Below, one piece after another: positions 16 through 17,572 of a stretch of DNA of 17,587 nt. The stretch lies in the IMG/VR virus record IMGVR_UViG_3300045988_158108. The stretch is one strand, 5' to 3'. The notes below the pieces were generated by a model, which was given only the letters and a program-made list of their open reading frames with translations, had not been told where the DNA came from and did not search any database. The stretch's first letter is position 1; every line of letters starts with the position of its first letter. Both the position numbers and the translations under genes were made by a program. Source of the stretch: a virus.

Positions 16-79
16 GTACATTCCCTTTCTCAAAAATTTTTAGCCCCCCTAAAAAATATTTTTTAGCTAAATTTATTCG
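16..79. repeat. Left inverted terminal repeat (64 bp) of a linear genome. Presumed protein-primed replication origin.
   Basis: gtacattccctttctcaaaaatttttagcccccctaaaaaatattttttagctaaatttattcg is the perfect reverse complement of 17509..17572 (64/64). It contains the A5T5 palindrome aaaaattttt, a C6 run and a second A/T tract. Similarity continues imperfectly for ~20 nt inward, with one indel. Confidence 0.85.
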
Positions 80-88
80 AGAAAAGTA

Positions 89-117
89 TTGACAATCTGA
101 ATTTATTATTATACGAT
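89..117 (+). promoter_or_regulatory. Left-end early promoter, sigma-A-like
   Basis: -35 TTGACA (89..94), 17-nt spacer, -10 TACGAT (112..117), directly internal to the ITR. First gene follows with RBS AAGGAA. Confidence 0.4.
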
Positions 118-164
118 GGTCTTGTCGATAAGGACAAAACAAAAAACGAAAGAAGGAAATTATC

Positions 165-482
165 ATGTCAAAAGAAGAAAAAGTACAAACCGAGGAAGAA
201 TTAGAATTTTCACTGAAAGCAGATAGAGCGAATGCGTTTATGAGAAAATTGGATATTCCTTTTATTACTATCACATTTTCAGAAGATACGCACAATGTAT
301 CGGTGAATGCAAGCGAAAAACATTTTGCAATTGCAGTTGATAGTTTGCTAGAAGAAATCATCAATAATCTTGACCCACAAGAAGACATCATGAAAATCTT
401 GTTATTTATGGGAATGTTAAAAGGCAACATGGATAAATTAGATGCTTTATTACCTACATTAGGTGAAAGCGATGAAGATTAA
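165..482 (+). CDS. Early protein, 105 aa, net acidic with acidic C-terminal tail (GESDED). Position-equivalent to phi29 p6 DNA-binding protein. Alternatively a DNA-mimic or anti-host factor.
   Basis: ORF with RBS AAGGAA 6 nt upstream. First gene inward from the left ITR and promoter. No recognisable motifs. Confidence 0.55.
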   Translation: MSKEEKVQTEEELEFSLKADRANAFMRKLDIPFITITFSEDTHNVSVNASEKHFAIAVDSLLEEIINNLDPQEDIMKILLFMGMLKGNMDKLDALLPTLGESDED

Positions 483-578
483 GAACAAGCTTTCTAACTT
501 TCTATTTATTTCATTTTTACCATTATCATTAATCACTTACATTATTTTAGGTTTAATATACTAGGAGGAATTTCAATC

Positions 579-986
579 ATGGAAACATTAATTATTGCAG
601 GACAAATTACAGCAACATCAAACAGACAAGATGACAAGTTCAAACAAGAAGTACCAACGAAAACGGTGTACATCGCTTTCGATGAAGAAAACGGCAAGAA
701 ATTGGAAGATTTTGGCATTCACACTTACACATCCAAAAACAAGGAACGCTTTGCAATTGTAAAGGCGCCTGCAAGTGGAATCTCAATTTGGAACAATGGC
801 AAAAATCTTGGCAAAATGGATTGTTCAATTGAAGCAAAAAATTTCAAAACTGTTGACGGTTTGCCTGTCGGTCTTGCGTTCGTGAAAGGTGACAAACTAG
901 GAAACGACTTCTACCGCATTACTGATATTAATGTAGGTCAAGAAACGGACATCGAGTATCTTGAAAAAGAAAATCCTTTCATTTAA
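579..986 (+). CDS. Early protein, 135 aa. Candidate abundant ssDNA-binding protein, by synteny with phi29 p5.
   Basis: Strong RBS AGGAGG 8 nt upstream of the ATG. An intrinsic terminator follows immediately. N-terminus LIIAGQITATSNRQDD loosely resembles the OB-fold SSB start. Confidence 0.6.
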   Translation: METLIIAGQITATSNRQDDKFKQEVPTKTVYIAFDEENGKKLEDFGIHTYTSKNKERFAIVKAPASGISIWNNGKNLGKMDCSIEAKNFKTVDGLPVGLAFVKGDKLGNDFYRITDINVGQETDIEYLEKENPFI

Positions 987-998
987 TATTTAATAAAT

Positions 999-1034
999 GG
1001 GTAGAACTTTCACGGTTCTGCCCTTTTTATTTTT
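999..1034 (+). terminator. Intrinsic terminator or attenuator inside the left early operon
   Basis: 9-bp stem gggtagaac / gttctgccc (one G-U pair), 7-nt loop, followed by tttttatttt. Confidence 0.5.
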
Positions 1035-1046
1035 GGAGGAATAGAA

Positions 1047-1478
1047 ATGGCAAATTATACACTATCACACGAAATCTCTTTTGACCCGAATTTATCGGAT
1101 AGTTTGAAAGATGATGTAGTGCAAACCATCCAATTTTTTGGAAACATGTTTCAATGGACACCGAAAAAATTAGAAGATTTTTGCCCTGATAATATGGGTT
1201 GGGCAATGGCTCGCTCAATTGCCTATGGAAAATATCATAGTGCATTATCTAATTATAAACAGTATTATGATAAACCATCGGAAAATAATGAAGCACAATC
1301 AGACATGCACATTGCAGGAATGACGGAATTTATTTCAGAAATTTCTAAATCGAAAAACTTTCAGGACTTCACAAAAAACGTTAATAGGATGATACAAGCC
1401 ATCCAAAAAGCTGAGGGGCGTTACAACGTTGTATGGTATGCTTACATGGATGAAGGAACCAAGGCACCTTGGCAATAA
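1047..1478 (+). CDS. Hypothetical early protein, 143 aa. Position-equivalent to phi29 p4; function unknown.
   Basis: ORF with RBS GGAGG 7 nt upstream. No recognisable motifs. Confidence 0.6.
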   Translation: MANYTLSHEISFDPNLSDSLKDDVVQTIQFFGNMFQWTPKKLEDFCPDNMGWAMARSIAYGKYHSALSNYKQYYDKPSENNEAQSDMHIAGMTEFISEISKSKNFQDFTKNVNRMIQAIQKAEGRYNVVWYAYMDEGTKAPWQ

Positions 1479-1516
1479 TGAATCATTAGAAAGCACGACT
1501 ATTTCAAGAATAGGAC

Positions 1517-2782
1517 GTGTTAAAAATGTTTAAGAAAAAGAAATCACAAGAAGAAATCAACGAGGAAAATTTCAAGAAATGGCTAGAAGAATACCGTGAA
1601 TGTATTCCTCCTGATTATAATAAAATTAAATTAATGGATGATTTTACGAATCCAGATTATGACTGGTTTATTTCTATTTCTAATCGTTCCGATGGAAAAA
1701 GTTTCAACTATATTGGCTTTTTAATCTATTTTGCCCACAAGTCAGGTGTACCGTTTTTAATGGTCTGCCGTCACTGGACGATACAAAATGCTTATATCGA
1801 ATTAATTTATCAGATTTGCGATGAAGTATCTTGTTTTGACCCTTCTTTATTGGTAATTAAATCATCGGATGATTATAAGCTTGTTATTTATGACAAGGTC
1901 ACTGTCTGCATGATAACAGATTTTAATAACGCATCCGATTTGAAGTATTCTTCTTCACTTTTGAAAAAATTTACAATTGCTGTTTATGATGAATTTTTAG
2001 CGTTGAAAAATGACTACTTACCAGACGAATGGGAACGCTTTAAAACAATTATGGATGGTGTTGACCGTAACCATAAGGACTTGCCTTATATCCACACACC
2101 ACGAGCATTATTAATGGGAAATGCGGTCAATTTTGATAGCCCCTTTATTGCACACTTGAAATTGTTCAATAAGCTAGAAACGCAACCTATAAACTCTAAA
2201 CGATATTATGACAAGGGAAAATTTAAGGTTATCATGGAAATTAATCGAAATGATAACGTGAAAGAGAAACGTAATTCAAGAATGTTTGGTGCAGAAGATG
2301 ACCCGATGGAAACCGCACAATTTAAAATAAATAGCACATTCATTATTGATGATGATGATTTGCAAGCCGTGAAAGCTCGTGCAAAATTTTTCTACATCAA
2401 AACACATGAAAACATGTTAAAAGTATTGTACAATCGAGAAAAAGGGTATATAGTGTTATCTGTAGAAGTTGACAGTGGTCAAGATTATGATTTTTGTACG
2501 GAAACAAGTGACATAAAAAAAGGCGTTCGCTTCATGAATGAATTTTTCTATGATGATGAACATCATAAGAAATACACAAAAGGTCTTTTCTTGTTTGAAA
2601 ATTCATATTCAAAAAATACCATCGTTGACGATCCACAATATTCTAGTATTAAGATACACAAGTGTATTAAAATTCATGACTTGGAACATCGTGACCCGAT
2701 GCCGTTTCGTGAAATAGTCTATCAAGAAAATACGGTGGCAGATATTAAAAGAAATCTGTTTCGTAAATTCATGCAAGGATGA
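1517..2782 (+). CDS. DNA encapsidation (packaging) ATPase, phi29 gp16-like, 421 aa
   Basis: Degenerate Walker A SNRSDGKS. Walker B hhhhDE (TIAVYDEF). Downstream GNAVNFDSPF recalls gp16 SNAVSVVNPYF. Sits directly upstream of the polymerase with an ATGA overlap. That arrangement is typical of 44AHJD/P68-like and Clostridium podophages. Confidence 0.6.
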   Translation: MLKMFKKKKSQEEINEENFKKWLEEYRECIPPDYNKIKLMDDFTNPDYDWFISISNRSDGKSFNYIGFLIYFAHKSGVPFLMVCRHWTIQNAYIELIYQICDEVSCFDPSLLVIKSSDDYKLVIYDKVTVCMITDFNNASDLKYSSSLLKKFTIAVYDEFLALKNDYLPDEWERFKTIMDGVDRNHKDLPYIHTPRALLMGNAVNFDSPFIAHLKLFNKLETQPINSKRYYDKGKFKVIMEINRNDNVKEKRNSRMFGAEDDPMETAQFKINSTFIIDDDDLQAVKARAKFFYIKTHENMLKVLYNREKGYIVLSVEVDSGQDYDFCTETSDIKKGVRFMNEFFYDDEHHKKYTKGLFLFENSYSKNTIVDDPQYSSIKIHKCIKIHDLEHRDPMPFREIVYQENTVADIKRNLFRKFMQG

Positions 2783-5187
2783 TTAAAATGTTAAGAGAAA
2801 ATGAGGAACTCGCACTATATATAAACCGTTGTCGCAGGTTGCGAAAAGAAAAGAAAATTGTTCTTTTTTGGGATATTGAAACATTGCTTTATAATATCAG
2901 TCAAGCTAAAAAAAGTGGCAAACCTACCGATTATAAAAACATCTCTTTTTCTTGGTGTGTCGGATGGATAAGCGATGAAGAACCGAACAAAATTGAAACC
3001 ACACTCTTTTCTACTGTTAAGGAATTTTTTGAGTGTGTGGCAAGCGGTTATGTCACACCACCGAGATATTCAAAAAAAGGCTATCAAGACATGACCATAG
3101 AATTGATAGCACATAATAATAACCGTTACGATAACCATTTTTTACGACGTGAATTAATGTATTTGTTCCCTTTTATGCAAGAGGGAAATATGTATGTGCG
3201 TAACGCAAAAGAAAATATTTATACGTATACGCAAAAAGATATTACACCCGAAATGCGTGAGGGTTTCATTTTGTCTAAGCGTATAAAATCATCGAATAAT
3301 TTAGATATGGAAATTTATTTCAAGGGTATTCGCTTTAAAACAGTTGATAATTGGATGAAAACGAACTGCTCTATTAAAACAATAGGCAAGAAGTTGCATG
3401 CAAAAGGCTTCATACCTGAAAGCATGTTAAAAACGGAATTTGACTATCAAAAATATGATAGAACCGAAAATCTTTCAGATAGAGAAGCTTTCGAGTATGC
3501 AAAATCAATTTTGCCTAAGTTAGATAAGAAACAACTCACGTATATCGAAAATGATGTATTAATTTTAGGCTATGGCTATATTTATTATTCAGAAATATTT
3601 TACGGCTTTAGCTATGATGCCATTACTTTTTCTAAAAATGTATTGGACTATTACAACGACAATATCATGGCAGGCTTTCAATTATTAAACAATTTTCCAT
3701 TAGAAACGGATAGCAAGAAACAGAAAATAAAATATACAGATTATCAGTTTCATGGCATGAATTTATATGACTTCTTTAAACAATTTTATCGGGGCGGTTT
3801 GAATTTTTATAATGATAAATATGTGGGCAAACTGCTAGAAGAATCTTGTTTTTCTATGGATAGAAACTCTAGTTATCCTGATGTAATGTATCATGACTTA
3901 GTACCCACATTTCTTTCCTCGTTTACACATTATGAAAAACCTAAGAAAATTGTTTTGCCCCTTTATCAAAAGGAAAAATATCATTTGTTTACGGTTCCGA
4001 AAGCTCGTTTCAATTTAGAAGTCTTATATAAGATTAAATCTAAAATCGTTCGGCAAATGTTAACAAAATACTATAATGGCAATGATGAAGTCTGTATAAA
4101 TACTTATACCATCCGTCTAATTCAAGAAGTTGGGCAATTAGACTTGAAAGAATTGACAGTGACAAGCGTTGTTGAGTATGATTGCATTCCTTTTGCAAGT
4201 CGGGAACATTTAGCCGAAAACTATTTTATCAAAACACAAGGTAAACTTGATAAAAAAATAATCATGAATACACCATCCGATTATATTTTGACAGATGAAG
4301 AAAACACCGAAACTTATTCAGCAGAAGAAATTTATATTTCTAAAACGCTTATGAATGGCTTGTATGGTGTACCAGCACTTCGAGCCTATTTCAATATCTT
4401 TCGTTTATTGCCCGATGGCGAATTAGAAAATCAGATTAATGGATACGAAAATACGCCACGAAATATCTTGTTTTCAGTTTGGACGACTTCTGTTGCTGTT
4501 TATAAATTGTTATTGCCATTGTCTTATTTAACACCTGAAGAAATTGACGAAAACTTTTTATACTGTGATACGGACAGTCTATATCTAAAAAGCAAGATAA
4601 AAGACAAGATGCCAGAAAAATTATTTGACCCAATTGCCTTAGGGGCTTGGGATATAGAAAACAATGACATCACTCATTTTTATATCTTGAATCACAAGAA
4701 ATATGCCTATTATTCAAAAGACATAAAAGATGGTCAAGAAAAAGGGATTGCAGTTCACTGCGGAGGTATTCCACTAGAAAGCTTTAATACAGATATGTCC
4801 TTTAGTGAGTTTATCGAAACGCAATTTCATGCAGGAATCGTGGTAGAAAATCAAAAATCAATCGTGAATAACATGGGAACAGTATCCATCTATCCAAGTA
4901 AAACGAAAATTGTCGCAGGTTCGCCTTATGCTGAAAATATGAGTGTTGGCATCGATGAAGAACGAAAATCAATAATTAAAGAAATCAATGAATCTGAAAT
5001 TGATTGGACGGATGACTATTTATATATCGAAACAAGCGTAGGGGCATTTAGCTTTCAAGATTTGCATCCTGTTATTCATCCGAAACACTATAAAGCGCCA
5101 TTGGACTTCTTAAAACGCAAACACGACCAAATGAAACAATGGTATCAAAATTCTATTGACAATCAAGAAATAGCAACCTATAATTAA
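2779..5187 (+). CDS. Protein-primed family B DNA polymerase, 802 aa. The alternative start at 2788 has a better-spaced RBS.
   Basis: ExoI FWDIET. ExoII HNNNRYDNHF. ExoIII YIENDV. Motif A DRNSSYPDVM. Motif B KTLMNGLYG. Motif C YCDTDS. KxY motif HKKYAYY. Associated with an ITR-bearing linear genome. Confidence 0.9.
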   Translation: MIKMLRENEELALYINRCRRLRKEKKIVLFWDIETLLYNISQAKKSGKPTDYKNISFSWCVGWISDEEPNKIETTLFSTVKEFFECVASGYVTPPRYSKKGYQDMTIELIAHNNNRYDNHFLRRELMYLFPFMQEGNMYVRNAKENIYTYTQKDITPEMREGFILSKRIKSSNNLDMEIYFKGIRFKTVDNWMKTNCSIKTIGKKLHAKGFIPESMLKTEFDYQKYDRTENLSDREAFEYAKSILPKLDKKQLTYIENDVLILGYGYIYYSEIFYGFSYDAITFSKNVLDYYNDNIMAGFQLLNNFPLETDSKKQKIKYTDYQFHGMNLYDFFKQFYRGGLNFYNDKYVGKLLEESCFSMDRNSSYPDVMYHDLVPTFLSSFTHYEKPKKIVLPLYQKEKYHLFTVPKARFNLEVLYKIKSKIVRQMLTKYYNGNDEVCINTYTIRLIQEVGQLDLKELTVTSVVEYDCIPFASREHLAENYFIKTQGKLDKKIIMNTPSDYILTDEENTETYSAEEIYISKTLMNGLYGVPALRAYFNIFRLLPDGELENQINGYENTPRNILFSVWTTSVAVYKLLLPLSYLTPEEIDENFLYCDTDSLYLKSKIKDKMPEKLFDPIALGAWDIENNDITHFYILNHKKYAYYSKDIKDGQEKGIAVHCGGIPLESFNTDMSFSEFIETQFHAGIVVENQKSIVNNMGTVSIYPSKTKIVAGSPYAENMSVGIDEERKSIIKEINESEIDWTDDYLYIETSVGAFSFQDLHPVIHPKHYKAPLDFLKRKHDQMKQWYQNSIDNQEIATYN

Positions 5188-5217: not shown

Positions 5218-5421
5218 ATGAATGAAAGTATAGAAAATATTAACGGTCGATTAGACGAATTAGAGGAACTTGCTAAATATATTGAATCGCATGACGTTGA
5301 TAAACAAGGTATATTAATGTATATCGCATTTAGAGCTATTACTTTAGGAATGGGTATGGATATAACACTAAATGAAATGACTGGTAAATTAGAAAAGAAA
5401 GAAAGTGATAACCATGAGTAA
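5218..5421 (+). CDS. Hypothetical protein, 67 aa
   Basis: ORF with RBS AGAGGGAAA upstream. No motifs. Confidence 0.45.
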   Translation: MNESIENINGRLDELEELAKYIESHDVDKQGILMYIAFRAITLGMGMDITLNEMTGKLEKKESDNHE

Positions 5422-5797
5422 AATTTTTCCGATTAAATCAGGTATGAAAAAATGTCCTTCCTATGATGAATTTATGCGGGCGGATGATATAAGCTTGAAA
5501 ACCACCCAAGAAATTGATAAGTACATGATGCTAGAAAGAATGAGTACACGTCTACTAAACGACCCTGAATTAAAACCCGATGAACGATTGCAGGCGAAAA
5601 TAAATGCGGAACGTTTTCTAAATAAACGGATGGAATTAGTGGAAGAATATGACATTTTGACTATCTATATTAAGTCCACTTACCACCGATTGTGCGAGGA
5701 ATTAGAACTTTATCGGTCTGATTTTAAAGCATTTAACGAGCAAAACGCATCGGCAAAATATCGAAAAAAACCACAAAAAACCCACGAACCTTTATAA
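5405..5797 (+). CDS. Hypothetical protein, 130 aa with a basic C-terminus. Possible regulator or DNA-binding protein. Alternative start at 5414.
   Basis: ORF overlapping the previous gene. Purine-rich RBS. The stop codon lies in the loop of the bidirectional terminator. Confidence 0.5.
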   Translation: MITMSKIFPIKSGMKKCPSYDEFMRADDISLKTTQEIDKYMMLERMSTRLLNDPELKPDERLQAKINAERFLNKRMELVEEYDILTIYIKSTYHRLCEELELYRSDFKAFNEQNASAKYRKKPQKTHEPL

Positions 5798-5812
5798 TTC
5801 GTGGGTTTTTTT
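5775..5812. terminator. Bidirectional intrinsic terminator at the convergence of the plus and minus transcription units
   Basis: aaaaaa cccacgaa cctttataa ttcgtggg ttttttt: 8-bp GC-rich stem flanked by an A-run and a T-run, so it functions on both strands. Confidence 0.65.
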
Positions 5813-5913
5813 ATCATGTAAAGAAGGAAATGAGGGAATCAAAAGAAAGCACTGTTAAGGAGGTAGCATCCTTGCTACACGTTTAATATATCATTATCGG
5901 TTTTCACAGTCAA

Positions 5914-6786
5914 CTAAACGAATAACAATTTTTCTTTGCTTTCTGTAAACAGCCAGATAAATTCTTCTGGTAGTTGTACGTGACTTAATGTAAAACCTTT
6001 ATAAGGTGTTTGTTCCTGCACCACACCAACGCTAGCAATTTGAAAATTGAAATAATCACCTACGCTTAAAACTTGGTTCGGTGTTTTTTCACCAGTTGCA
6101 GGACTTACCTTATCAATCACCGAAACAGGAATACCGTTTTCCGTCCAGTTAAAATCTACCTTATGCAAATCTTGACAATACACTTGCCATAAACCGTTGA
6201 CATATTCTAAGCCATCCACACGGTAATTTCTGCGTACTTTTCCGTTTGGTTTTGGCGGTTGGGGCGTTGGTTTGTTCCCTCCTGCCAGTTCTTTGGCACG
6301 TGCCACTAATTTATCCACGTTGATGCCCCCAGGACACGCTGTAGCGGTTATTTCATTGTGTCCTAAGATATGCCCTCTATCGATTGGAATGCCGTAGCGT
6401 TTGCAAATATCCACGATAAGGCGTGCGCTATTTTCAAGTGTTTCTTTTGCTACTGCCCAATCAGGGACACCAGTGCTGTTCACATGCTCTAGTCCGATAC
6501 TACGTTGATTGATGTTTGCAATTTTTGGTACATCCGTTCCACCTGTTCCGCCTGCATGATAAGCGCAATAGTTTTCGCCAACGCATCCGATAATCTCATT
6601 CGGCGTAATTTCATAATGTGCGCTCGTCCAATTGCCACTTGATATATTCCATGTGTTCATAGCGACATCTTTATTTGTGGTTGCATTATGATGGATAACG
6701 ATGAACTCAATTTTTCCAGTTCGTGGCTCGCAGAACATTGGATTAGGGTTTTTAGAAGTAATTAAATTTGAATAGGTTTCGCTCAT
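5914..6786 (-). CDS. Endolysin, 290 aa. N-acetylmuramoyl-L-alanine amidase (Amidase_2/PGRP), Pro-rich linker, then a C-terminal ~90-aa putative SH3-like cell-wall-binding domain.
   Basis: Amidase_2 signatures: FIVIHHNATTN, AHYEI, CAYHAG, SIGLEHV. Linker PTPQPPKPNG. RBS GGGAGG. ATGA overlap with the holin stop codon. Confidence 0.85.
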   Translation of the reverse strand: MSETYSNLITSKNPNPMFCEPRTGKIEFIVIHHNATTNKDVAMNTWNISSGNWTSAHYEITPNEIIGCVGENYCAYHAGGTGGTDVPKIANINQRSIGLEHVNSTGVPDWAVAKETLENSARLIVDICKRYGIPIDRGHILGHNEITATACPGGINVDKLVARAKELAGGNKPTPQPPKPNGKVRRNYRVDGLEYVNGLWQVYCQDLHKVDFNWTENGIPVSVIDKVSPATGEKTPNQVLSVGDYFNFQIASVGVVQEQTPYKGFTLSHVQLPEEFIWLFTESKEKLLFV

Positions 6787-7172
6787 TTTTTTGTTCCTCC
6801 CTTAGGGTCGTTGTCGTAGTCTTGTTGTACTTTCACAAGTATTTCTTTTAACCATTTAGGAACAATAATATTCATTTGTCCTAAATTTTCAAGAATTGAA
6901 ATACCATAGCTGGTTGCAAAAAAGATAATTAAGCCATTCGATATAAAATCTAATTTCATAATATGACCGAAAATAGAAACGGCACATATCATCATCACGA
7001 TGGCTGAATGTTTTAATACGCCTTGTAATGCCGTTGTGGAATTAGGTGTTTTTGTATAGAAAGCTTTCATCAATCCTGTGGCTAAGTCCATAAATACTAA
7101 TGTCATGATTATCCAAAAAAAGGTGTTTTGTGCCGTCCAGTGGCACGCTTCTATAAATAATTTAAAGGTCAT
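6783..7172 (-). CDS. Holin, class I with three predicted TM helices, phage_holin_4-like. The six-frame ORF extends to a TTG at 7202; the ATG at 7172 has an RBS.
   Basis: Three hydrophobic segments: FFWIIMTLVFMDLATGLM, SAIVMMICAVSIFGHIM, GLIIFFATSYGISIL. Charged C-terminus DYDNDPKGGTKK. Sits immediately upstream of the endolysin with a 4-nt overlap. Confidence 0.75.
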   Translation of the reverse strand: MTFKLFIEACHWTAQNTFFWIIMTLVFMDLATGLMKAFYTKTPNSTTALQGVLKHSAIVMMICAVSIFGHIMKLDFISNGLIIFFATSYGISILENLGQMNIIVPKWLKEILVKVQQDYDNDPKGGTKK

Positions 7173-7240
7173 TTTCACTGCCTTAGTCCTTTCTGGTATC
7201 AACTATACCAATTCAATAAGTTTCACTGATAGCAAGGCTT

Positions 7241-8741: not shown

Positions 8742-8745
8742 GAAA

Positions 8746-10590: not shown

Positions 10591-10601
10591 GTTTTAACCT
10601 C

Positions 10602-11474
10602 CTAAGGTAACATAGTTGGTGGCAATACTGTACCAGTCCATGCAACGTATCCTTCTGGTAAATCAGGGTCGAAATCCGCCACTCTTAATCTTAAATAAAG
10701 CATTGTATTATAATTATCTGGAATTGTAGCCATAAACATGGTTTGTTTTGTACCTTCTTGATATTGCCCAACGAGTGGCAATTCTGCATCAGTTTCTGGA
10801 GAAATACCATTAAAGCGCATATTGTAGTATGAAGTGTTTGATAAATCACCATCAAACCAAATTTGTAAATTTTTGCTATCTTTACCAACCTGAATTTTAA
10901 CAGGTGAATAGGTAGGTTTTACAACTGTTAAAACAGTGTGATAAACACGCTCGCCACTTTCAATTTCGTACATGTCAATATCGTAGTTGCCTTCTGCATA
11001 GGCTTCAAAGCCCCACGTACAATCATTGTCATTTTCTTGGATAATATCCATTTTTTTAGCAACCGCTGTGGAAAATTTACGATAAGTAAGTTCGTATTTT
11101 GTTCCTAGTCCTTCACCTTCAAAGTAAAATTCATATTTATAATTAGTAGTTGTATAATCAATTGTTGTTGGTAAAATTGAATTACCTCCACTAATATTGA
11201 TATTTCCTTTTTCATCTGGTTTTTCACCGTTTATAGTCTTTACACCTACATCAATTGTAACGGCTCCTGCTCTGTCTGTCGTTGCTACACCGTTCACACT
11301 TTTAACGGCATTTGTTAGTTGATAGTATTGTGGTTTTTCTTTCTCTTTGGTACGCACATACACCTCGCCTGCCGTGTCACTTAATAGGTCGTTTTGTACA
11401 TTTGTACGAAATTCTTGATTATCAATCTTGCGAATATTATGGATGTTTCTTGTAAATCTGCTACCCATTTGCAT
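10602..11474 (-). CDS. Virion structural protein, 290 aa, beta-rich. Candidate fibre, appendage or receptor-binding component.
   Basis: ORF in the late operon between the portal block and the tail knob. RBS GAAAGG. Thr/Gly/Tyr-rich composition. Confidence 0.35.
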   Translation of the reverse strand: MQMGSRFTRNIHNIRKIDNQEFRTNVQNDLLSDTAGEVYVRTKEKEKPQYYQLTNAVKSVNGVATTDRAGAVTIDVGVKTINGEKPDEKGNINISGGNSILPTTIDYTTTNYKYEFYFEGEGLGTKYELTYRKFSTAVAKKMDIIQENDNDCTWGFEAYAEGNYDIDMYEIESGERVYHTVLTVVKPTYSPVKIQVGKDSKNLQIWFDGDLSNTSYYNMRFNGISPETDAELPLVGQYQEGTKQTMFMATIPDNYNTMLYLRLRVADFDPDLPEGYVAWTGTVLPPTMLP

Positions 11475-12207
11475 TACCGCCTTTCATTGGTGGGGCTTGT
11501 AACCATTGCCCATTTAAATAAATTCTATTGTGTCCTGTATTCGGTTGTTTAATGGTGTTTGCATTTTCAAGGCTTTTATCTACCCATGCACCATTTAAAT
11601 AAATTTGAATGTGTCCGTTGTTACTATTAAAGTCCTTCCACGCACCTTGATACTCGGCATAAGGACGATAGTTGGCAGGATTGGTGTTTGTGATACTTCC
11701 GCCGATGTATAAATTAAATTCATCATCCGCCACACTCGCATCCGCTAACCAGTGCGCCACTTTAATTTCTGGAATTTTTAGGGTTTGTCCTGCATTCACT
11801 TTATAATGTTTCGGTGTGCTACCTTTATTCGTTACAAATATATCGCCTGTATCAAAAGAACTTGATAAGTCTAATGCTTGTTGCCATACCTGAACTAAAT
11901 TACCATCATTTTTCATATCCACATTCAGTGTATACGTAACACTTGCTGTTGTGATATTTAGTGCTTCATACGTTCGCACTCTAAATTGACTTACACCATA
12001 AAAATCTAATTCTATTGATCCATCGGAATTTTCTTTATAGTTTCGGACATCCGCCCAAATATAAACAATATACTTTGCTACGCTTTGCCCTGCTCGAAAT
12101 TCATTTCTAAATTTTGCACTATACAAGTTCCCTTCTGATGCCGTACCTTCAGAAAGTCCACCTTGTATAAGTTCCACACGTCCGCCAAAATTAAATTTAT
12201 CTGCCAT
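11461..12207 (-). CDS. Virion structural protein, 248 aa, with an internal repeat. Candidate receptor-binding or head-fibre protein.
   Basis: Repeated motif GHIQIYLNGAWV / GHNRIYLNGQWL near the C-terminus. Abuts the upstream stop (TAAtcATG). Confidence 0.35.
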   Translation of the reverse strand: MADKFNFGGRVELIQGGLSEGTASEGNLYSAKFRNEFRAGQSVAKYIVYIWADVRNYKENSDGSIELDFYGVSQFRVRTYEALNITTASVTYTLNVDMKNDGNLVQVWQQALDLSSSFDTGDIFVTNKGSTPKHYKVNAGQTLKIPEIKVAHWLADASVADDEFNLYIGGSITNTNPANYRPYAEYQGAWKDFNSNNGHIQIYLNGAWVDKSLENANTIKQPNTGHNRIYLNGQWLQAPPMKGGNANG

Positions 12208-12209
12208 GA

Positions 12210-12986
12210 TTAAATACCTGTTGTCACATCGTAATCGGCAACGCCCTTCCGTGTACGGATGAAGTGCGTACCACCTGCGACACCTGAAAAGTGGTTAATG
12301 TTACCAGTAGCAATGTTTCTATCTGGATTGAAATTAAACGTGTAAATATTGTTAGTTGTAATGGCACCCGAATTGTAAAGATTATCAATAATTTTTTGTA
12401 GGGTCTGTTCTATTTTTTTGATGTTATTAATTAAATTATTAATTTCATCCCCTTGGTCATTGATGATTTTAATTAAATTACCAATCTCTTTATCAATCGC
12501 ATTCAAGGCATTTATATAATCAGGCGACCACACACCATTTTTTCTTACTACTGTACCATTGGGAATCTTGACCGTTTTTGGGTCGAAATTATTAAACGTG
12601 CGTTCATCTACATCGGGCGACACAATCACATCCGCTTTAATATGAATCACATCATCGAAACCATGACAAACACCGTTGTCAATCCAATCGCCTATTTTTG
12701 TCATATCAATTGAATTGGTGTCATCTACTTCTAAGTTACGGCGCAATAAGCGATTAATAACATCCTCCACGACATGCGCCCATTTTCCGAAACGTGCTAA
12801 ATAATCGTAATAATCTTTTGCGTTGGTGTTAAAGTCCGAACTGTCATCATACCATGGTTCATAATGGTTTTTAAAATGACCATAATTGTAAAATCTGCCA
12901 TGATTATGATGAAATGCGTGGTGGTCAAAAAAACCAACTTGGCTCCAAAAATCAGGTTCAAACTTTTCTTTATCGTTACCAGACAT
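12210..12986 (-). CDS. Virion structural protein, 258 aa from the ATG at 12986. His/aromatic-rich N-terminus plus a heptad coiled coil. Candidate tail fibre or appendage.
   Basis: RBS GAAAGGAAG 10 nt upstream of the ATG at 12986; the six-frame ORF extends upstream to 13034. HHAFHHNHGRFYNYGHFKNHYEPW. Coiled-coil segment IGNLIKIINDQGDEINNLINNIKKIEQTLQKIIDNL. Confidence 0.4.
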   Translation of the reverse strand: MSGNDKEKFEPDFWSQVGFFDHHAFHHNHGRFYNYGHFKNHYEPWYDDSSDFNTNAKDYYDYLARFGKWAHVVEDVINRLLRRNLEVDDTNSIDMTKIGDWIDNGVCHGFDDVIHIKADVIVSPDVDERTFNNFDPKTVKIPNGTVVRKNGVWSPDYINALNAIDKEIGNLIKIINDQGDEINNLINNIKKIEQTLQKIIDNLYNSGAITTNNIYTFNFNPDRNIATGNINHFSGVAGGTHFIRTRKGVADYDVTTGI

Positions 12987-13614
12987 GTAAAAAGCACTTC
13001 CTTTCAAAAATTCTAAATACTTTATCAAAAACATCCTGCATCTTTTCTAAGTTGTCAGGGCTGTAAACGTTGTTCGTGCTATCTGTGGTCGTGTCATTTT
13101 GCATCTTGGTACGTGCCACATTGTTATCATCCGCATAATCGATAATCGTTTCATTTAAATCTAAATGTACAACGGTTTGCGGTAGTGATTGGTACGCACT
13201 TCTTGAATCCATTTGATTATCTTGTGCGCCCACTTGGTGGCTGTCCGTTTGACCTGTCACATATTTATCAAAGTTTTCAAAAAGGTTATTCAGATATGGT
13301 GTTAACTGTAAAAACTCATAACTTACTTTTGCAGAAAAAGCATCAATAGTTTGTGTTTGAATCTGTCTATTTAAAAAGCGATTGACAAACATTCGTTTAA
13401 ATGCTTTATCATATTCAGGTTTTGCGAGTGATAAACCGTGGAAAATTCGGCGGTTAACAATTGATGCCACCACTTCATCATAATCCATAATACGTTGGAT
13501 AAAGGCGAAATCATCATTAAAACCAGTTAATTGGTTTTGATTGAAAAATTCATTTTCGCCATTGTTATGCAGTTCTGAATGCAGATAATCATACATTGTC
13601 GTTGTGATTTTCAT
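12976..13614 (-). CDS. Virion protein, 212 aa. Possible lower collar, assigned by position directly after the portal.
   Basis: ORF with RBS AAGGAGGAG. Overlaps the portal stop. The assignment rests on gene order alone. Confidence 0.3.
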   Translation of the reverse strand: MKITTTMYDYLHSELHNNGENEFFNQNQLTGFNDDFAFIQRIMDYDEVVASIVNRRIFHGLSLAKPEYDKAFKRMFVNRFLNRQIQTQTIDAFSAKVSYEFLQLTPYLNNLFENFDKYVTGQTDSHQVGAQDNQMDSRSAYQSLPQTVVHLDLNETIIDYADDNNVARTKMQNDTTTDSTNNVYSPDNLEKMQDVFDKVFRIFERKCFLHVW

Positions 13615-14602
13615 TGTTGTCGAACTCCTCCTTTGTATTTAAGATTAATAGTTCACTGTCTAAACCATCATTATAAATCGCTCGTAATTGTACACCGAAA
13701 CGTTTTTCTAACCATCGGAATGGACGGTTTCTCGCTTCAAGATAGATATTGCCATTCCCTGTTGTGAATGCTCGGTTTGAATTGGCTTCCGTATCACTCA
13801 CACCGCTTTCTTTATCAACGGCAAGCGAATTTAAGCCTAACATGTTTAAGCATTCAGATAAAATGTTTTGGTACTCACGTTTTAACTCCACAAGGTTTGA
13901 TGAAAGACTAGCATTATCTACCGTGATAATTTGTTCTTTCGGGTCAAAATAGCCGTCAACTTTTGTGGCAACGCCGCCGTTGTAAATGTCAGAAATTAAT
14001 TGATTGGCTGTTTCGTCATTCGTATCCGATACAAAAAACGTCATTACTTTCGCTTGAATTGCCAACGAATAACGAGAAGTGATAAGTTCTGCTAGTCGGT
14101 CGGCATAATGCTCAATAACTTCCATATCGGAAACATAGTTGGCTACTTTATTTGTTAGGACAACAAAATTGCCTGTTTCACAATCATCCAAGGTCGTAAT
14201 TTCACGCATTTTTTTTGGGCGCAACGGTCTTGGAATTATCCAATTTATATCTCTTTCTGTCAATCTACGGCGGTTCCATAAGTTGGTGGCATCACTTACA
14301 CCCTGCACGGTTGTAACAATGCCTAATAACATCAATTTGCCATTGTTGGCAATTCCGATGGCTAGTTTATTGTTTTGCCGTAACGCTAACTCACACCGAA
14401 CAACATCTAGTGCCGTGTTTTCTGCTCCTAACCATTTTATCGTTAATGGCAAAATCTCTAAAATTCGATTAATAAATAAACGGCGAAAGGCGTTACGCAT
14501 TGCAACGACTTTCGCCTTTAATTGTACCGATAATTCAGGTTCTAAGCCATTTAACGCATTAGGATTGTTAGGGTTCGGATTGTGAAAGCTATGTTCACTC
14601 AT
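13589..14602 (-). CDS. Portal / connector (upper collar) protein, phi29 gp10-like, 337 aa
   Basis: Size is close to gp10 (309 aa). Sits immediately downstream of the capsid gene. N-terminal RNAFRRLFINRILEILPLTIKWLG... recalls the gp10 N-terminal region. RBS AAAGGA. Acidic C-terminal tail. Confidence 0.5.
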   Translation of the reverse strand: MSEHSFHNPNPNNPNALNGLEPELSVQLKAKVVAMRNAFRRLFINRILEILPLTIKWLGAENTALDVVRCELALRQNNKLAIGIANNGKLMLLGIVTTVQGVSDATNLWNRRRLTERDINWIIPRPLRPKKMREITTLDDCETGNFVVLTNKVANYVSDMEVIEHYADRLAELITSRYSLAIQAKVMTFFVSDTNDETANQLISDIYNGGVATKVDGYFDPKEQIITVDNASLSSNLVELKREYQNILSECLNMLGLNSLAVDKESGVSDTEANSNRAFTTGNGNIYLEARNRPFRWLEKRFGVQLRAIYNDGLDSELLILNTKEEFDNNENHNDNV

Positions 14603-14618
14603 AAATACCCATCCTTTC

Positions 14619-15797
14619 TTATGCGCCTGCTTTTCCCTTTACCAAAATTTTATTATAGAATGGTGAAATGAATTTGTTTGAGTAGTAGTGCAACCAGTAA
14701 GTCACTTCATCATATTCGCCATTGTAGAATGGTGGTTTTAACATGCCTTTAGTGTATTGTTTGTATCGAATGCAATCCACATCCAAGACAAATGCCCACA
14801 AGTCAGAAGATGGTTTTACTTCTTCCACTTTGCCTTTAAATTCTACTAATTCAGAAATATCAAACGTCAATACTGTTCCTTTCGGTAAAATATCACCGAT
14901 GGCAATTTGATAATCTCCCAATGAACGGAATTTAGCAATGGTATCCACCTCTGCAATGGTTACATCAGCAGTCAAACGGAACGTTCCACCTAAGTCATCA
15001 AAACTCATGATGTGGTCGGTCATGTCAATACCTTCATTGGCGAATGTGTTCGCAATTTTGGTGTTTAATAAGTAGCTTTTTAGTTTATCCGTTGTTAAAA
15101 TTAAAAGTTTATCTAATTTTGAAACGGTAGTATAGCGACCTAATGCACCACCAGATGCAGTATCCGCTTCATTGTGTTTTTCACTGTTATTTTGTACGTT
15201 TAATAATGCAGTGAATACTTCCTCGAATAATTCTTCTTCTGATGTGACTTGACGAACGTCTTTTACGTTACGTTCTGCATAGTCAACAAGCATTCCTTTC
15301 ATTTCACGTTCTTCTTGAACATTAATATCAGAAATTTTCTTACGGTAGACACCTGTTGCATAGTTGATAGCATCGCCTAATGTAGAAAAGTTCAAACGTG
15401 TATCGTTGTTATTTAACGTGAATTTCATTTTCTTTACAATACCTTCATGGTACAATTTAGTAGCCATACGAGGGTATTCACGTTTAAGCATCATTTCTTC
15501 TGATTTTGATAAGTTCATTGCCACAGGCACACTATCAAGGATAACGTATTCTTCTGAATATTGACCGATAAAGTCAACTTCTTTTGCGAAACGTTGGAAA
15601 CGATTGCCTAATGCTTGTGAAACTAGTAAAGTTTCGTTAATTTTTGGAAATAGATATTTATTAATAAAGGTTTCAAACTCGGTATTCACATTAGACCAGT
15701 TTTCACCAATTTGCCATGCTGTGCCATGGTCGGCATTCCACATTTTTAAGGCATCCGCCGTGGCTAGTGTGACGGCATCACGTTGCGTTTTTGGCAT
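14619..15797 (-). CDS. Major capsid protein (putative), 392 aa
   Basis: Largest head-region ORF, between the scaffold-like and portal genes. RBS AGGAGG 8 nt upstream. Translationally coupled to the upstream small ORF (TAATG). Confidence 0.5.
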   Translation of the reverse strand: MPKTQRDAVTLATADALKMWNADHGTAWQIGENWSNVNTEFETFINKYLFPKINETLLVSQALGNRFQRFAKEVDFIGQYSEEYVILDSVPVAMNLSKSEEMMLKREYPRMATKLYHEGIVKKMKFTLNNNDTRLNFSTLGDAINYATGVYRKKISDINVQEEREMKGMLVDYAERNVKDVRQVTSEEELFEEVFTALLNVQNNSEKHNEADTASGGALGRYTTVSKLDKLLILTTDKLKSYLLNTKIANTFANEGIDMTDHIMSFDDLGGTFRLTADVTIAEVDTIAKFRSLGDYQIAIGDILPKGTVLTFDISELVEFKGKVEEVKPSSDLWAFVLDVDCIRYKQYTKGMLKPPFYNGEYDEVTYWLHYYSNKFISPFYNKILVKGKAGA

Positions 15798-15958
15798 TAT
15801 TCGTTACCTCCTTGGATAGAGTGTAGTTTATTTTCATATTCATCGGGCGCTTGTTGTGTAATACTCATGCGCTCATTTAATTCTTTTGATTTGTCTAATT
15901 TATTATCTGAATAATTAGACTGCATCAAAGATGGTCGTTCGTTTTGTTCTGGGTTCAT
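15797..15958 (-). CDS. Small hydrophilic protein, 53 aa (MNPEQNERPSLMQSNYSDNKLDKSKELNERMSITQQAPDEYENKLHSIQGGNE). Absent from the supplied ORF track.
   Basis: ATG at 15958 with RBS AGGAGG 8 nt upstream. Its stop overlaps the capsid start by 1 nt (TAATG). The capsid RBS lies within its 3' end. Confidence 0.45.
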   Translation of the reverse strand: MNPEQNERPSLMQSNYSDNKLDKSKELNERMSITQQAPDEYENKLHSIQGGNE

Positions 15959-15986
15959 AAAAATGAACCTCCTTTCTTAAAGGTGG

Positions 15987-16283
15987 TTATACGTCCAAAT
16001 ATTCTTCAATCTCGTCCAATAAATCTTCATCTTTTGTAGGGTCTTCTTCCGTTGGGTCTAGTTCTGGCTGAATGGTATCCGTTACGCTATCAGGTTCTAC
16101 CTCTGGACGGACAGACTCTAATTGCTCTACTCGTGTCAATAAATCTTCAATCGCTTCTTTTAATTCAGCGATGTCTGTTGATTGACTTTCGTTTTCTGCA
16201 TCTTCTTTTGCCTGTTCTTCTTTGGTTTCTACCTCAACGGGTTCTTTTTCTTCTACTTCATCAATTTTTTCTTCCTCGGTCAT
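15987..16283 (-). CDS. Hyper-acidic helical protein, 98 aa from the ATG at 16283. Scaffolding-protein candidate (phi29 gp7 is 98 aa); a DNA mimic is the alternative.
   Basis: 40 of 98 residues are D or E, against only 8 K/R. RBS GGGAGG 7 nt upstream of the ATG at 16283. First gene of the late operon, directly upstream of the capsid gene. Confidence 0.5.
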   Translation of the reverse strand: MTEEEKIDEVEEKEPVEVETKEEQAKEDAENESQSTDIAELKEAIEDLLTRVEQLESVRPEVEPDSVTDTIQPELDPTEEDPTKDEDLLDEIEEYLDV

Positions 16284-16306
16284 AGTCACACCTCCCATTT
16301 ATGTTA

Positions 16307-16335
16307 ATTTTAAGCTACAAAAAAAGACAAGTCAA
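16307..16335 (-). promoter_or_regulatory. Sigma-A-like promoter for the morphogenesis operon. Its -35 lies inside the early terminator hairpin.
   Basis: Minus strand: -35 TTGACT (16330..16335), 17-nt spacer, -10 TAAAAT (16307..16312). Predicted TSS ~16300; first late gene RBS GGGAGG. Confidence 0.35.
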
Positions 16336-16346
16336 CAAGACTTGCC
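16319..16346 (-). terminator. Intrinsic terminator ending the right-end early transcript
   Basis: Minus strand: ggcaagtc ttgtt gacttgtc followed by ttttttt. 7 to 8 bp stem, 12 nt after the 298-aa gene stop. Confidence 0.5.
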
Positions 16347-16356
16347 TTATTATATA

Positions 16357-17253
16357 TTATTTAGTTTTTGGTGTGGTTACAATTCGATAGATATGTGCTT
16401 TAGAATCATATTCAAGTTCATATAAAGTACAATTTGAATGTAAATTCATATCACGCAATGCCACATCCAATAAATCAATTAACTGTTTAATTTCACTTTC
16501 AAGGAAATAGGCATTAAAAAAGTTATTTTTAGGAAATGTATCAAGCTTTTCTTTTAAACGTTTGTTTTCATCTCTTAATATTGAAATATTTTCAATTAAG
16601 TTTTGCATTTGTTTTTCATTAGGAAAGAATACAGTAGCACCACCTGATAAATCATCTTTTAAGGAATTATTTTCTTTTTCAAGTTCTGATAGTTTATCAC
16701 ATAAGCGATTATTTAATTTGAATAATTCTTTGTTACGTTTTGCTTCATGGTCTAAGGCTTCATTTAATTCATTTTTTGAATCTGTTATTTTTGCTAAATC
16801 TTTTTTCAGTTCGCTAACGTAATTTTCTAATCGAGTGTGACTATCCAAAATAGGTTTAAATTGTTGTTTATAATTATTCATTTCAATTTCTTGTTTTTGT
16901 AATCTAGTTACTTCTTTTTGTAATTCTTCTACCAATTCATTTTTACTTTTCAATTCTTGTTCATATCTAGAAACCAAATTTAACCAATCTCTTTCTTCCA
17001 TGTATCCCGAATGAATATCATCCATATAACTAGTTTCAATTACCATCCCACTTTTTAAACAAGTAGCAATCGATTCAGGAATATTTATTTCAAGATTTTC
17101 AATATCGCATGTCGTTTTATATTTGTCTTTTCCATCGATTGGGTTCGTTTTTACATAAGCATTTTTCCATTCTTGTTCCCAATTTTTTAATTGTTGTTCA
17201 TAATAATCTCTTTCAGTTTTCAATTGGTTGTATTCTTCTTTACTTATCCACAT
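16357..17253 (-). CDS. Right-end early coiled-coil protein, 298 aa from the ATG at 17253. Function unknown; speculative terminal-protein candidate.
   Basis: Strong RBS AAGGAGGA 8 nt upstream of the ATG at 17253; the six-frame ORF extends to a TTG at 17280. Long heptad-rich K/E/L/N stretches. Carries its own promoter and terminator. Confidence 0.55.
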   Translation of the reverse strand: MWISKEEYNQLKTERDYYEQQLKNWEQEWKNAYVKTNPIDGKDKYKTTCDIENLEINIPESIATCLKSGMVIETSYMDDIHSGYMEERDWLNLVSRYEQELKSKNELVEELQKEVTRLQKQEIEMNNYKQQFKPILDSHTRLENYVSELKKDLAKITDSKNELNEALDHEAKRNKELFKLNNRLCDKLSELEKENNSLKDDLSGGATVFFPNEKQMQNLIENISILRDENKRLKEKLDTFPKNNFFNAYFLESEIKQLIDLLDVALRDMNLHSNCTLYELEYDSKAHIYRIVTTPKTK

Positions 17254-17449
17254 TTGTTTCTTCCTCCTTAAATGATTCAACTAAATGTACAACTACTGTA
17301 AACCATGAATTTTGTTCATTAATGTAAATAACTTCTGCATTGTCTGGTAAAGAGTTCAAAAACTTTTCAAAATTATCCCTGAAATGAATTTCTTTAACAC
17401 GATACTTCAAAGGTATATACTTTTCACCATCCCATTGCTTAAATAACAT
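17240..17449 (-). CDS. Right-end early protein, 69 aa from the ATG at 17449 (the six-frame ORF extends to 17473)
   Basis: RBS GGAAGGAAG 7 nt upstream of the ATG at 17449. The upstream ATGs lie in or before the predicted transcript start. Confidence 0.4.
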   Translation of the reverse strand: MLFKQWDGEKYIPLKYRVKEIHFRDNFEKFLNSLPDNAEVIYINEQNSWFTVVVHLVESFKEEETNVDK

Positions 17450-17471
17450 TTTATCACTTCCTTCCATATCC

Positions 17472-17500
17472 ATTTTAATACTTTTGAATTGCCCTGTAAA
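17472..17500 (-). promoter_or_regulatory. Right-end early promoter, sigma-A-like, mirror of the left-end promoter
   Basis: Minus strand: -35 TTTACA (17495..17500), 17-nt spacer, -10 TAAAAT (17472..17477), directly internal to the right ITR. Confidence 0.4.
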
Positions 17501-17508
17501 TAATTTTC

Positions 17509-17572
17509 CGAATAAATTTAGCTAAAAAATATTTTTTAGGGGGGCTAAAAATTTTTGAGAAAGGGAATGTAC
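17509..17572. repeat. Right inverted terminal repeat (64 bp)
   Basis: Exact reverse complement of 16..79. Confidence 0.85.

Follow-up and report, generated by a model that had tools for sequence, protein, structure and literature searches.

A linear phage genome bounded by 64-bp inverted terminal repeats, very probably near complete and belonging to an uncultivated Rountreeviridae-type lineage that recurs in public metagenomes

The stretch of DNA analyzed here (the window) is the 17,587-nucleotide IMG/VR virus record IMGVR_UViG_3300045988_158108. Without the library adapter at its ends, the genome has 17,557 bp, a GC content of 35.7%, a coding density of 95%, and 21 genes, and it is enclosed by perfect inverted terminal repeats (ITRs). 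The left arm, on the plus strand, carries three small open reading frames (ORFs), a packaging ATPase gene, a gene for a family-B DNA polymerase (PolB), and two small ORFs. The right arm, on the minus strand and read inward, encodes proteins of 77, 307, 103, and 53 amino acids (aa), the major capsid protein (MCP), the portal, the lower collar, three ORFs of the fiber region, the knob, a lysin, a holin, and an endolysin. We consider it highly probable that the window is the essentially complete linear double-stranded DNA genome, in one assembled contig, of a Rountreeviridae-type phage that is uncultivated, virulent, and short-tailed. A preliminary description of this DNA had proposed a complete, ITR-bounded linear genome of a small phi29-like podophage, and the ITR and the gene set both bear this out for a complete or near-complete genome. 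Six reference genomes (C1, 1E1, Idefix, Kurthia P1, P68, and PT1-9) served for comparison. The predicted replication and packaging genes of the left arm are as follows.

1047 to 1478, plus strand: 143-aa candidate 5' terminal protein (TP), phrog_6099, directly upstream of the packaging ATPase gene
1517 to 2782, plus strand: packaging (encapsidation) ATPase, gp16-like, phrog_2150 (8e-79), with Walker A (GKS) and hhhhDE motifs
2779 to 5187, plus strand: family-B DNA polymerase, protein-primed type, 802 aa (799 aa from 2788), phrog_1907 (2e-120)

As a single sequence, PolB has no match in Pfam or PDB. A profile built from 20 PolB sequences has a sole match in PDB, the phi29 DNA polymerase (DNAP) 1xhx (E value of 5e-11), and the match spans ExoIII, motifs A, B, and C, and KxY. 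All of the exonuclease (ExoI, ExoII, and ExoIII) and polymerase (A, DxxSLYP-like; B, Kx3NSxYG-like; C, YxDTDS; and KxY) motifs are invariant across the PolB alignment, with invariant columns at D32/E34, N113/D118, Y255/D259, D361-P367, K522-G530, Y595-S600 (D597/D599), and K640-Y642. The AF2 (AlphaFold2) model of PolB (pLDDT of 85.5 and pTM of 0.81) has the phi29 DNAP 2pyj as its top fold match, with an E value of 7.5e-26 and a TM score of 0.71 over the whole phi29 chain, and also matches the phi29 DNAP-TP complex 2ex3 (E value of ~1e-25); the next-best family-B polymerases in the fold search have E values of 1e-9 or weaker. The modeled fold is clearly closest to that of phi29 DNAP, with which PolB shares ~16% sequence identity. 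A beta-hairpin at residues 539 to 553 of the model lies in the position expected for TPR2 and is a candidate for it; TPR1 and TPR2 are the insertions that set protein-priming enzymes apart. By motif spacing, the residues that PolB has in excess of phi29 DNAP fall into small insertions in the exonuclease domain and a C-terminal extension of ~85 aa. This extension (residues ~715 to 802, window positions 4920 to 5187) is found in Rountreeviridae polymerases and has no counterpart in phi29 DNAP; it carries a ..YIES..G.FS..D.. motif, with D746, Y749, E751, G755, F757-S758, and D761 invariant, and a long terminal helix.

For the packaging ATPase, gene callers placed the start at 1526 (418 aa) on other assemblies, and single-sequence searches of Pfam and PDB gave no match. 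A protein-primed-type polymerase with all motifs and a gp16-like packaging ATPase had both been named in the preliminary description, and the PHROG matches, together with the invariant polymerase columns, agree with it.

A terminal protein is not recognizable by sequence in the window, as is usual for Rountreeviridae. The 143-aa product of ORF 1047-1478 matches phrog_6099 with an E value of 5e-6, its counterpart in a relative with 7e-8, and P68 ORF8 with 2.8e-89; the family also takes in an Andhravirus (PT1-9) gene that is syntenic to Andhra gp7. Andhra gp7, encoded directly upstream of the packaging ATPase, is a proposed terminal protein that was detected in virions and has a predicted phi29 gp3 topology (PMC9710869), and the authors of the Idefix study chose the syntenic gene as the terminal protein (PMC6356687). 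Synteny and phrog_6099 membership suggest that the 143-aa protein is the best terminal-protein candidate. It has only two homologues in 5.8 billion proteins. Some properties weaken this assignment without refuting it: the AF2 model of the candidate is all-helical but of low confidence (pLDDT of 54), Foldseek gave no match at an E value of 0.001 or lower, and the protein is acidic (pI of 5.3), whereas known TPs are usually basic (PMC6356687). A covalently attached terminal protein is a prediction at this stage, and the basic product of 5405 to 5797 (pI of 8.5) is an alternative candidate.

The right arm carries the virion and lysis genes, most of which have family matches.

15797 to 15958, minus strand: 53-aa inner capsid (capsid-lining) protein, homologue of P68 gp21 'Arstotzka' (PMC6795507)
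14619 to 15797, minus strand: major capsid protein, PF25622 (6e-78), PDB 8egt of Andhra (2e-167) and 6iat of P68 (2.5e-163)
13589 to 14602, minus strand: portal (upper collar/connector), PF05352, phrog_2038 (1.5e-64), PDB 8egr (3.7e-84) and 6iac (8.9e-79)
12976 to 13614, minus strand: lower collar/tail stem protein, phrog_3225 (7e-36), 26 to 35% identical to lower collar proteins of the family
8746 to 10590, minus strand: tail knob, phi29 gp9-like, PF16838 and PF20934
7305 to 8741, minus strand: PlyCA-type bifunctional lysin (glycosyl hydrolase and CHAP), 478 aa, PF21480 (PlyCA_N, 7e-59), phrog_34646 (7e-218)
6783 to 7202, minus strand: holin (129 aa from 7172), PF05105 (4e-20)
5914 to 6786, minus strand: endolysin, N-acetylmuramoyl-L-alanine amidase with a zoocin-A-type wall-binding domain, PF01510 (Amidase_2, 3e-23) and PF16775 (ZoocinA_TRD, 8e-34)

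Each of the six reference genomes has, upstream of its capsid gene, a small gene whose product is 37 to 61% identical to the 53-aa protein. The knob matches the PDB structures 8egs of Andhra (4.5e-130), 4eo2 of C1 (4.6e-91), and 5fb4, phi29 gp9 (1.7e-11). The head-tail module of the preliminary description holds for the capsid, portal, gp9-like knob, and CHAP tail lysin, each with family matches; the 'scaffold-like protein' that it included lacks homology support.

The PlyCA-type lysin aligns with PlyCA (PDB 4f88, 1.6e-66) over residues 5 to 376, with the CHAP cysteine region aligned and the glycosidase domain best conserved, and it is 61 to 65% identical to Copernicusvirus LysIA. Andhra gp10, P68 gp11, and Minhovirus SHEF14 ORF11 are PlyCA-like glycosidase and CHAP proteins at the tail tip (PMC9710869 among the sources). 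A tblastn search of the window with C1 PlyCB gave a best E value of 0.99, and PlyCB is likewise absent in Idefix (PMC6356687); a PlyC-type holoenzyme thus cannot be assembled from recognizable parts. Because the gene directly follows the knob gene, tail-tip relatives are known, and PlyCB is not encoded, the protein is most likely, by analogy, a virion-associated entry lysin of the tail tip or spike. The holin and the amidase would form the exit system, and their domain matches are in line with the holin/endolysin cassette noted earlier for this DNA. No match to integrase, repressor, or excisionase families was found among the 21 ORFs, as the preliminary description had stated for integrase and repressor.

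The core proteins place the window among the Rountreeviridae. A Megablast search against 50,697 phage records matched the capsid gene only (71 to 76% identity over at most 6% of the genome), so that no near-identical characterized genome, which had been a possibility to be checked, was found, and genome-wide nucleotide similarity to every named genus is below 70%. The highest tblastn identities to annotated phages, 47% for PolB and 68% for the MCP, are all to Rountreeviridae. All six core proteins, the lower collar included, were found at 26 to 68% identity to the six references: 29 to 40% for the ATPase (the range to Rountreeviridae encapsidation proteins), 34 to 48% for PolB, 37 to 46% for the portal, 53 to 67% for the MCP, and 34 to 42% for the knob. 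Over five concatenated core proteins, the window is 37 to 46% identical to the six references and 76% identical to a metagenomic contig (L018), and a neighbor-joining tree of these proteins groups the window with L018 on a separate branch amid the six references. The tree has no outgroup, which weakens the placement, and monophyly with the Rountreeviridae rests on identity levels and synteny. The window shares with this family a linear, ITR-bounded genome of ~16 to 19 kb, the family core proteins, and the convergent gene order. Because no annotated phage shares nucleotide similarity with it beyond the capsid gene, the window represents a new genus-level branch of Rountreeviridae, possibly a new subfamily. 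Proteins identical to its capsid and TP-candidate proteins are present in NCBI nr/GenBank as 'MAG TPA ... [Caudoviricetes sp.]' (DAG12528.1 and DAG12537.1), and a literature search found no paper describing this lineage.

The preliminary description had read the long ITR, the large polymerase, and the inward late transcription as signs of a distinct, possibly undescribed lineage. This argument fails because the comparison belongs with Rountreeviridae and not with phi29. Perfect ITRs of 61, 112, 127, 143, and 209 bp are present in Idefix, Kurthia P1, PT1-9, C1, and P68, respectively, PolB is 755 to 784 aa long in the six references, and the inward-transcribed two-arm layout is shared by five of them (C1, 1E1, Idefix, P68, and PT1-9). 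What stands of the claim is that no close annotated phage exists and that a new genus at least is indicated; the family is known, and identical proteins were already in GenBank. A separate, undescribed family-level lineage of phi29-like phages outside the Rountreeviridae is improbable. It would account for the lack of a nucleotide-level relative among the phage records and in IMG/VR, for a core-protein identity of only 37 to 46% to every named genus, and for the nine ORFs (of 21) with no tblastn match in the six references, five of which also have no PHROG family. However, Rountreeviridae genera are themselves 35 to 66% identical over the five core proteins, with C1, Idefix, 1E1, and P68 at 35 to 44% and thus equally distant. 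In addition, the gene order is that of Rountreeviridae, the MCP, portal, and knob match Andhra and P68 structures with E values of 1e-79 to 1e-167, and the three features cited as unusual are all typical of the family.

Among the references, P68, PT1-9, and Kurthia P1 show the highest PolB identities to the window (46 to 48%) and high MCP identities (62 to 67%), and the best PDB matches of the window capsid, portal, and knob are the solved Andhra and P68 proteins. P68, Andhra/PT1-9 (Rakietenvirinae), and Kurthia P1 likewise have genomes of 16 to 18 kb that end in inverted repeats and have a C-rich box close to the terminus. P68 and PT1-9 have the same left arm of small early genes, TP candidate, ATPase, and PolB, and the same inward right arm with core, lining protein, MCP, portal, lower collar, fiber, knob, tip lysin, and holin. 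The window differs from this group in a core identity of only ~46%, in a shorter ITR (64 versus 112 to 209 bp), in a fiber/receptor-binding region (10602 to 13034) made up of three smaller genes, two of which are unmatched in these phages, in an endolysin and tip lysin that are Enterococcus-phage-like and not Staphylococcus-phage-like, and in an extra, strain-variable two-gene cassette at the right end. In the deposited sequence of Kurthia P1, the structural module and the early genes share one strand, in contrast to the other five references, a difference due either to an inversion or to a problem of orientation or assembly in this entry. The same record (Kurthia phage vB_KgiM_P1, L004, ON637248.1) is deposited as circular despite its perfect 112-bp terminal inverted repeat.

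C1 (Fischettivirus) has the family architecture, a 143-bp ITR, and a 784-aa PolB, and the window lysin is a full-length PlyCA homologue; in contrast to C1, the window has a separate conventional endolysin, and core identity is only 37%. With phi29 (Salasmaviridae), the window has in common a linear genome with terminal repeats, the polymerase fold and catalytic motifs, a gp9-like knob, a gp10-like connector (PF05352), and a capsid protein of the Phi29_MCP family. In phi29, the ITR is 6 bp and the polymerase 575 aa long, the TP gene adjoins the polymerase gene, and a prohead RNA (pRNA) and a prolate head are present (PMC11476376), whereas the window has a 64-bp ITR, an 802-aa PolB, and a TP candidate gene separated from the polymerase gene by the ATPase gene. 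The Salasmaviridae marks, which are an ITR of 6 to 8 bp, a TP gene adjoining the polymerase gene, and a pRNA gene near the left end, were not found in the window.

The ends of the window are made up of the following elements.

1 to 15: library adapter, Tn5/Nextera mosaic end GTGTATAAGAGACAG, non-phage; the full Nextera read-2 adapter is present at the same end of contig L031
16 to 79, plus strand: left ITR, 64 bp, perfect, presumed replication origin, from end reading and repeat search
17509 to 17572, minus strand: right ITR, 64 bp, perfect; independent contigs stop at the same base
17573 to 17587: library adapter, reverse complement of the mosaic end, non-phage

A repeat search of the window reported inverted arms at 1 to 84 and 17504 to 17587, and reading of both ends showed that they are perfectly identical over positions 1 to 79 and diverge into unique sequence beyond. 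The phage ITR comprises 64 bp of this (16 to 79 and 17509 to 17572), well beyond chance; the coordinates given in the preliminary description are exact, and the adapter was passed over there without mention. The untrimmed adapter at both ends stretches the apparent inverted repeat from 64 to 79 bp. L031, a contig of this phage from a different assembly, starts with the complete Nextera read-2 adapter GTCTCGTGGGCTCGGAGATGTGTATAAGAGACAG, which meets the phage sequence 2 nucleotides (nt) further in. The left ITR contains a run of six C residues at 44 to 49, that is, CCCCCC 29 to 34 nt from position 16, and an 18-nt perfect palindrome, CTAAAAAATATTTTTTAG, at 49 to 66, which abuts the C-rich box. 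In C1, Idefix, Kurthia P1, P68, and the window, a C-rich box of four to six consecutive C residues is located ~30 to 40 nt from the end of the genome, and PT1-9 has one ~22 nt from its deposited end. The ITRs that share the box are otherwise unrelated in sequence (window positions 44 to 66 compared with bases 1 to 45 of L001, L003, L004, and L005), and the box may have been conserved as an element of the origin or of packaging.

Well over 100 metagenome assemblies contain this phage, many of them with the same ends. Among public assemblies, 28 blocks have contigs encoding the identical capsid protein, and 174 blocks of metagenome assemblies list the exact TP-candidate protein; most of the contigs with either protein are 17.3 to 17.57 kb long. 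The L013 scaffold is 100% identical to the window over 36 to 17557 and has part of the ITR at both of its ends. L011 and L019 (both MEGAHIT k111), L024 (MEGAHIT k127), L025 (Logan), and L026 (scaffolded) start at the same base, GTACATT..., and other contigs of the same phage start inside the ITR, with none extending into unique sequence. The source record of L024 is labeled as a human gut metagenome. A scan of JGI metagenomes with the ITR core gave one contig, which starts inside the ITR and is uninformative on the end, and scans of IMG/VR for PolB relatives and for the ITR core were both without matches.

The agreement of multiple assemblers and projects on the same terminal base shows that the ITR is not an assembly artefact, a possibility that the preliminary description had raised. 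Circular permutation in particular is not the source of the ITR because it yields direct, not inverted, terminal overlaps. Some observations nevertheless weigh against a reading of the window as a complete genome with protein-primed ends. The contig ends are set by the outermost Tn5 insertions, at G16 in the window and in five other contigs and at A18 in a further two, and are not proven physical ends. The recovered terminus, GTAC..., is without the short terminal reiteration that sliding-back initiation needs, and no phi29-type pRNA, which Rountreeviridae may or may not need, was found in the window by an Rfam search. Two MEGAHIT contigs from one project (L030, positions 1 to 100, and L023, positions 1 to 40) extend beyond the terminus into an inverted ITR copy and share one fold-back junction, ..GGGAA-ATAT-GTACATTCCC... 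The contig of the nearest relative, L018 (74% PolB identity, Logan SRR19169581), runs through the termini: at 7204 to 7376, the genome arms are joined head-to-head with a single C-rich motif, TAGCCCCCCTA, between them, and the contig breaks inside the knob and lysin genes. A second ITR copy or a long palindrome was looked for at the L018 junction and not found, the only palindromes there being short and AT-rich.

A library chimera would explain the junction of L030 and L023 as simply as a turn-around or template-switch product would. The junction would match a polymerase turn-around product if the template strand had ended in ...GTACATATTT-3'. The true 5' end would then be AAATATGTACATT (AAATAT-GTACATT), 5 to 6 nt further out, and the ITR would be ~70 bp long; such an end, if real, would be of the AAA type and resemble the phi29 and Kurthia P1 ends. 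That the head-to-head junctions and the L018 run-through are traces of real end-joined or turn-around products, which would reveal an AAA-type sliding-back origin, is a speculative reading that we doubt. If it were true, this widespread gut phage, as founder of a new Rountreeviridae subfamily, would offer a natural system for the study of polymerase template switching at TP-capped ends. The same fold-back junctions and L018 run-through with one C-rich motif copy, together with the Tn5 adapter at both ends and the circular deposition of Kurthia P1, would also be in line with the ITR and linear genome being an assembly or library artefact and the real molecule being circular, permuted, or differently ended. 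This is very improbable, given not only the inverted orientation of the repeats but also the 17.3- to 17.57-kb contigs of several projects (MEGAHIT, Logan, and scaffolded assemblies) that stop at the same base or inside the ITR, the differing unique sequence with its own promoter beyond the 64 bp at each end, and the ITRs of cultured relatives, including the 61-bp ITR reported for Idefix (PMC6356687). A linear plasmid or a defective or satellite element with phage genes can be dismissed almost entirely: some phi29-like sequences have been deposited as Enterococcus faecalis 'plasmids' (PMC11476376), but here the genes for virion, packaging, replication, and lysis form a complete set that takes up 95% of 17.6 kb, genes for plasmid maintenance or integration are absent, and cultured lytic relatives have the same gene complement.

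The near-complete linear phage genome carries the following putative transcription signals.

89 to 117, plus strand: sigma-70-like promoter, TTGACA-17-TACGAT, just inward of the left ITR, for the left (early) arm; a consensus match, with function suggested by position
17500 to 17472, minus strand: promoter-like site just inward of the right ITR, a consensus match
5156 to 5184: perfect consensus sigma-70 promoter, TTGACA-17-TATAAT, in the 3' end of the PolB gene, upstream of the ORFs at 5218 to 5797
5775 to 5811, both directions: strong bidirectional intrinsic terminator with a 16-bp stem and A/T runs on both sides, at the convergence of the arms
16348 to 16324 and 16335 to 16307: terminator-like hairpin and promoter-like site, which separate the two right-end genes from the structural operon

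The promoters are consensus matches only; shuffled sequence yields no fewer of them in total than the window, which leaves position as the sole informative feature. The Rfam search of the window gave no family at threshold; its weak matches are all terminator-like leaders at 5775 to 5811. A tRNA search of the window found none.

These features suggest a life cycle in which each ITR (64 bp, possibly ~70 bp) would serve as an origin, with PolB starting at both ends from a terminal-protein primer and copying the genome by strand displacement, which would produce no concatemers. Host sigma-70-type promoters just inward of each ITR would drive the arms inward to the terminator at 5775 to 5811. The gp16-like ATPase would load unit-length TP-DNA through the portal into a P68/Andhra-type capsid lined by the 53-aa 'Arstotzka' protein. 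At entry, a tail of lower collar, knob, and a PlyCA-type glycosidase and CHAP lysin at the tip would open the cell wall, and at exit, the holin and the zoocin-type wall-binding amidase endolysin would release the progeny. The window leaves the known workings of such phages unchanged. It adds a deep, uncultured branch to the Rountreeviridae, the smallest tailed phages of Gram-positive bacteria, which are valued for phage therapy as strictly lytic and compact.

The lysis genes offer a clue to the host. The catalytic domain of the endolysin is 72 to 76% identical to E. faecalis Copernicusvirus amidases, and for its wall-binding domain, the identity to E. faecalis siphophage lysins is 78%. On this similarity, Enterococcus in the human gut is the most likely host, an assignment that we favor with some reservation. 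It draws solely on lysis genes, which phages can exchange as modules, and a replication core nearer to that of Staphylococcus and Kurthia phages speaks against it. Idefix (Copernicusvirus) and vB_Ela_1E1 share the likely host genus; the 61-bp ITR of Idefix is close in length to that of the window, the Copernicusvirus holin is 45% identical to the window holin, and 1E1 has the same late-arm order of knob, spike lysin, holin, and endolysin. In contrast, the window PolB is only 34 to 36% and its ATPase only 35 to 36% identical to those of Idefix and 1E1. The replication and packaging core is thus nearer to the Staphylococcus/Kurthia group, which indicates a mosaic genome. In addition, the PlyCA-like gene of Idefix lies on the early (plus) arm behind an HNH endonuclease gene, whereas that of the window lies in the late arm after the knob gene, with no HNH gene. 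The GC content is 40 to 43% over 5500 to 9500 (endolysin, holin, tip lysin, and distal knob) and 31 to 37% elsewhere, and these GC-rich genes are also the most Enterococcus-phage-like, which suggests a horizontally acquired lysis/entry module. A scan of a genome collection with the endolysin for prophage or host clues gave no confirmed match, and the clusters of the nearest endolysin relatives yielded no organism names. The phage is frequent in human gut metagenomes, with Enterococcus as its probable host, and its genome could therefore guide the isolation of a new therapeutic or ecological model phage.

One contig (L040, GCA_003555605.1, QWBY01009612.1) encodes, at 2654 to 3637, a GH25 muramidase in place of the Amidase_2 domain, joined to a wall-binding domain that is 94% identical to that of the window. 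This match was considered as a host gene and rejected, as it belongs to another strain of the same phage. Compared with window positions 5914 to 6786, it represents a clean catalytic-domain swap inside one phage lineage. The new lysin modules are thus a PlyCA-type tip lysin and an amidase or GH25 catalytic domain exchanged on one wall-binding domain.

The remaining genes of the two arms are less well characterized.

165 to 482, plus strand: 105-aa acidic protein (pI of 4.4), function unassigned, no family match
579 to 986, plus strand: 135-aa early protein, phrog_22891, 47% identical to ORF2 of Enterococcus phage 1E1
5218 to 5421, plus strand: 67-aa acidic protein, function unassigned
5405 to 5797, plus strand: 130-aa (127 aa from 5414) helical protein, the only basic one among the small early proteins, function unassigned
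10602 to 11474, minus strand: 290-aa virion-module protein, receptor-binding or head-fiber candidate by position only, no relative in annotated phages
11461 to 12207, minus strand: 248-aa virion-module protein, phrog_15030, function unassigned
12210 to 13034, minus strand: 274-aa (272 aa from 13028) protein, candidate tail fiber or receptor-binding protein anchor, phrog_17155 and phrog_7547
15987 to 16298, minus strand: 103-aa (98 aa from 16283) very acidic protein (pI of 4.05), placed like the P68 gp22 core/scaffold protein and assigned on that basis alone
16357 to 17280, minus strand: 307-aa (298 aa from 17253) coiled-coil protein, no homologues, strain-variable
17240 to 17473, minus strand: 77-aa protein, first gene of the right arm, strain-hypervariable, with the promoter-like site at 17500 to 17472

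ORF 579-986 occupies the position of the single-stranded DNA-binding protein (SSB) gene of relatives; an SSB identity was rejected, as it has no PHROG in common with the SSBs of Idefix, Kurthia P1, and P68. Part of the 274-aa protein is 29 to 37% identical to stretches of the tail or collar fiber genes of 1E1, Idefix, Kurthia P1, P68, and PT1-9, and its C-terminal part is coiled-coil-like. The 77-aa gene is 36 to 57% identical in strains L010 to L012, and the 307-aa gene is 55 to 65% identical in L011 and L012, where nearly all other genes are 94 to 100% identical. A scaffold function of the 307-aa coiled-coil protein is unlikely, as it is strain-variable and encoded upstream of the internal terminator/promoter pair, and the two genes probably form an early cassette at the right end. 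This pair (16357 to 17473), which is split from the structural operon by the terminator and promoter, resembles an early host-interaction or antidefense cassette.

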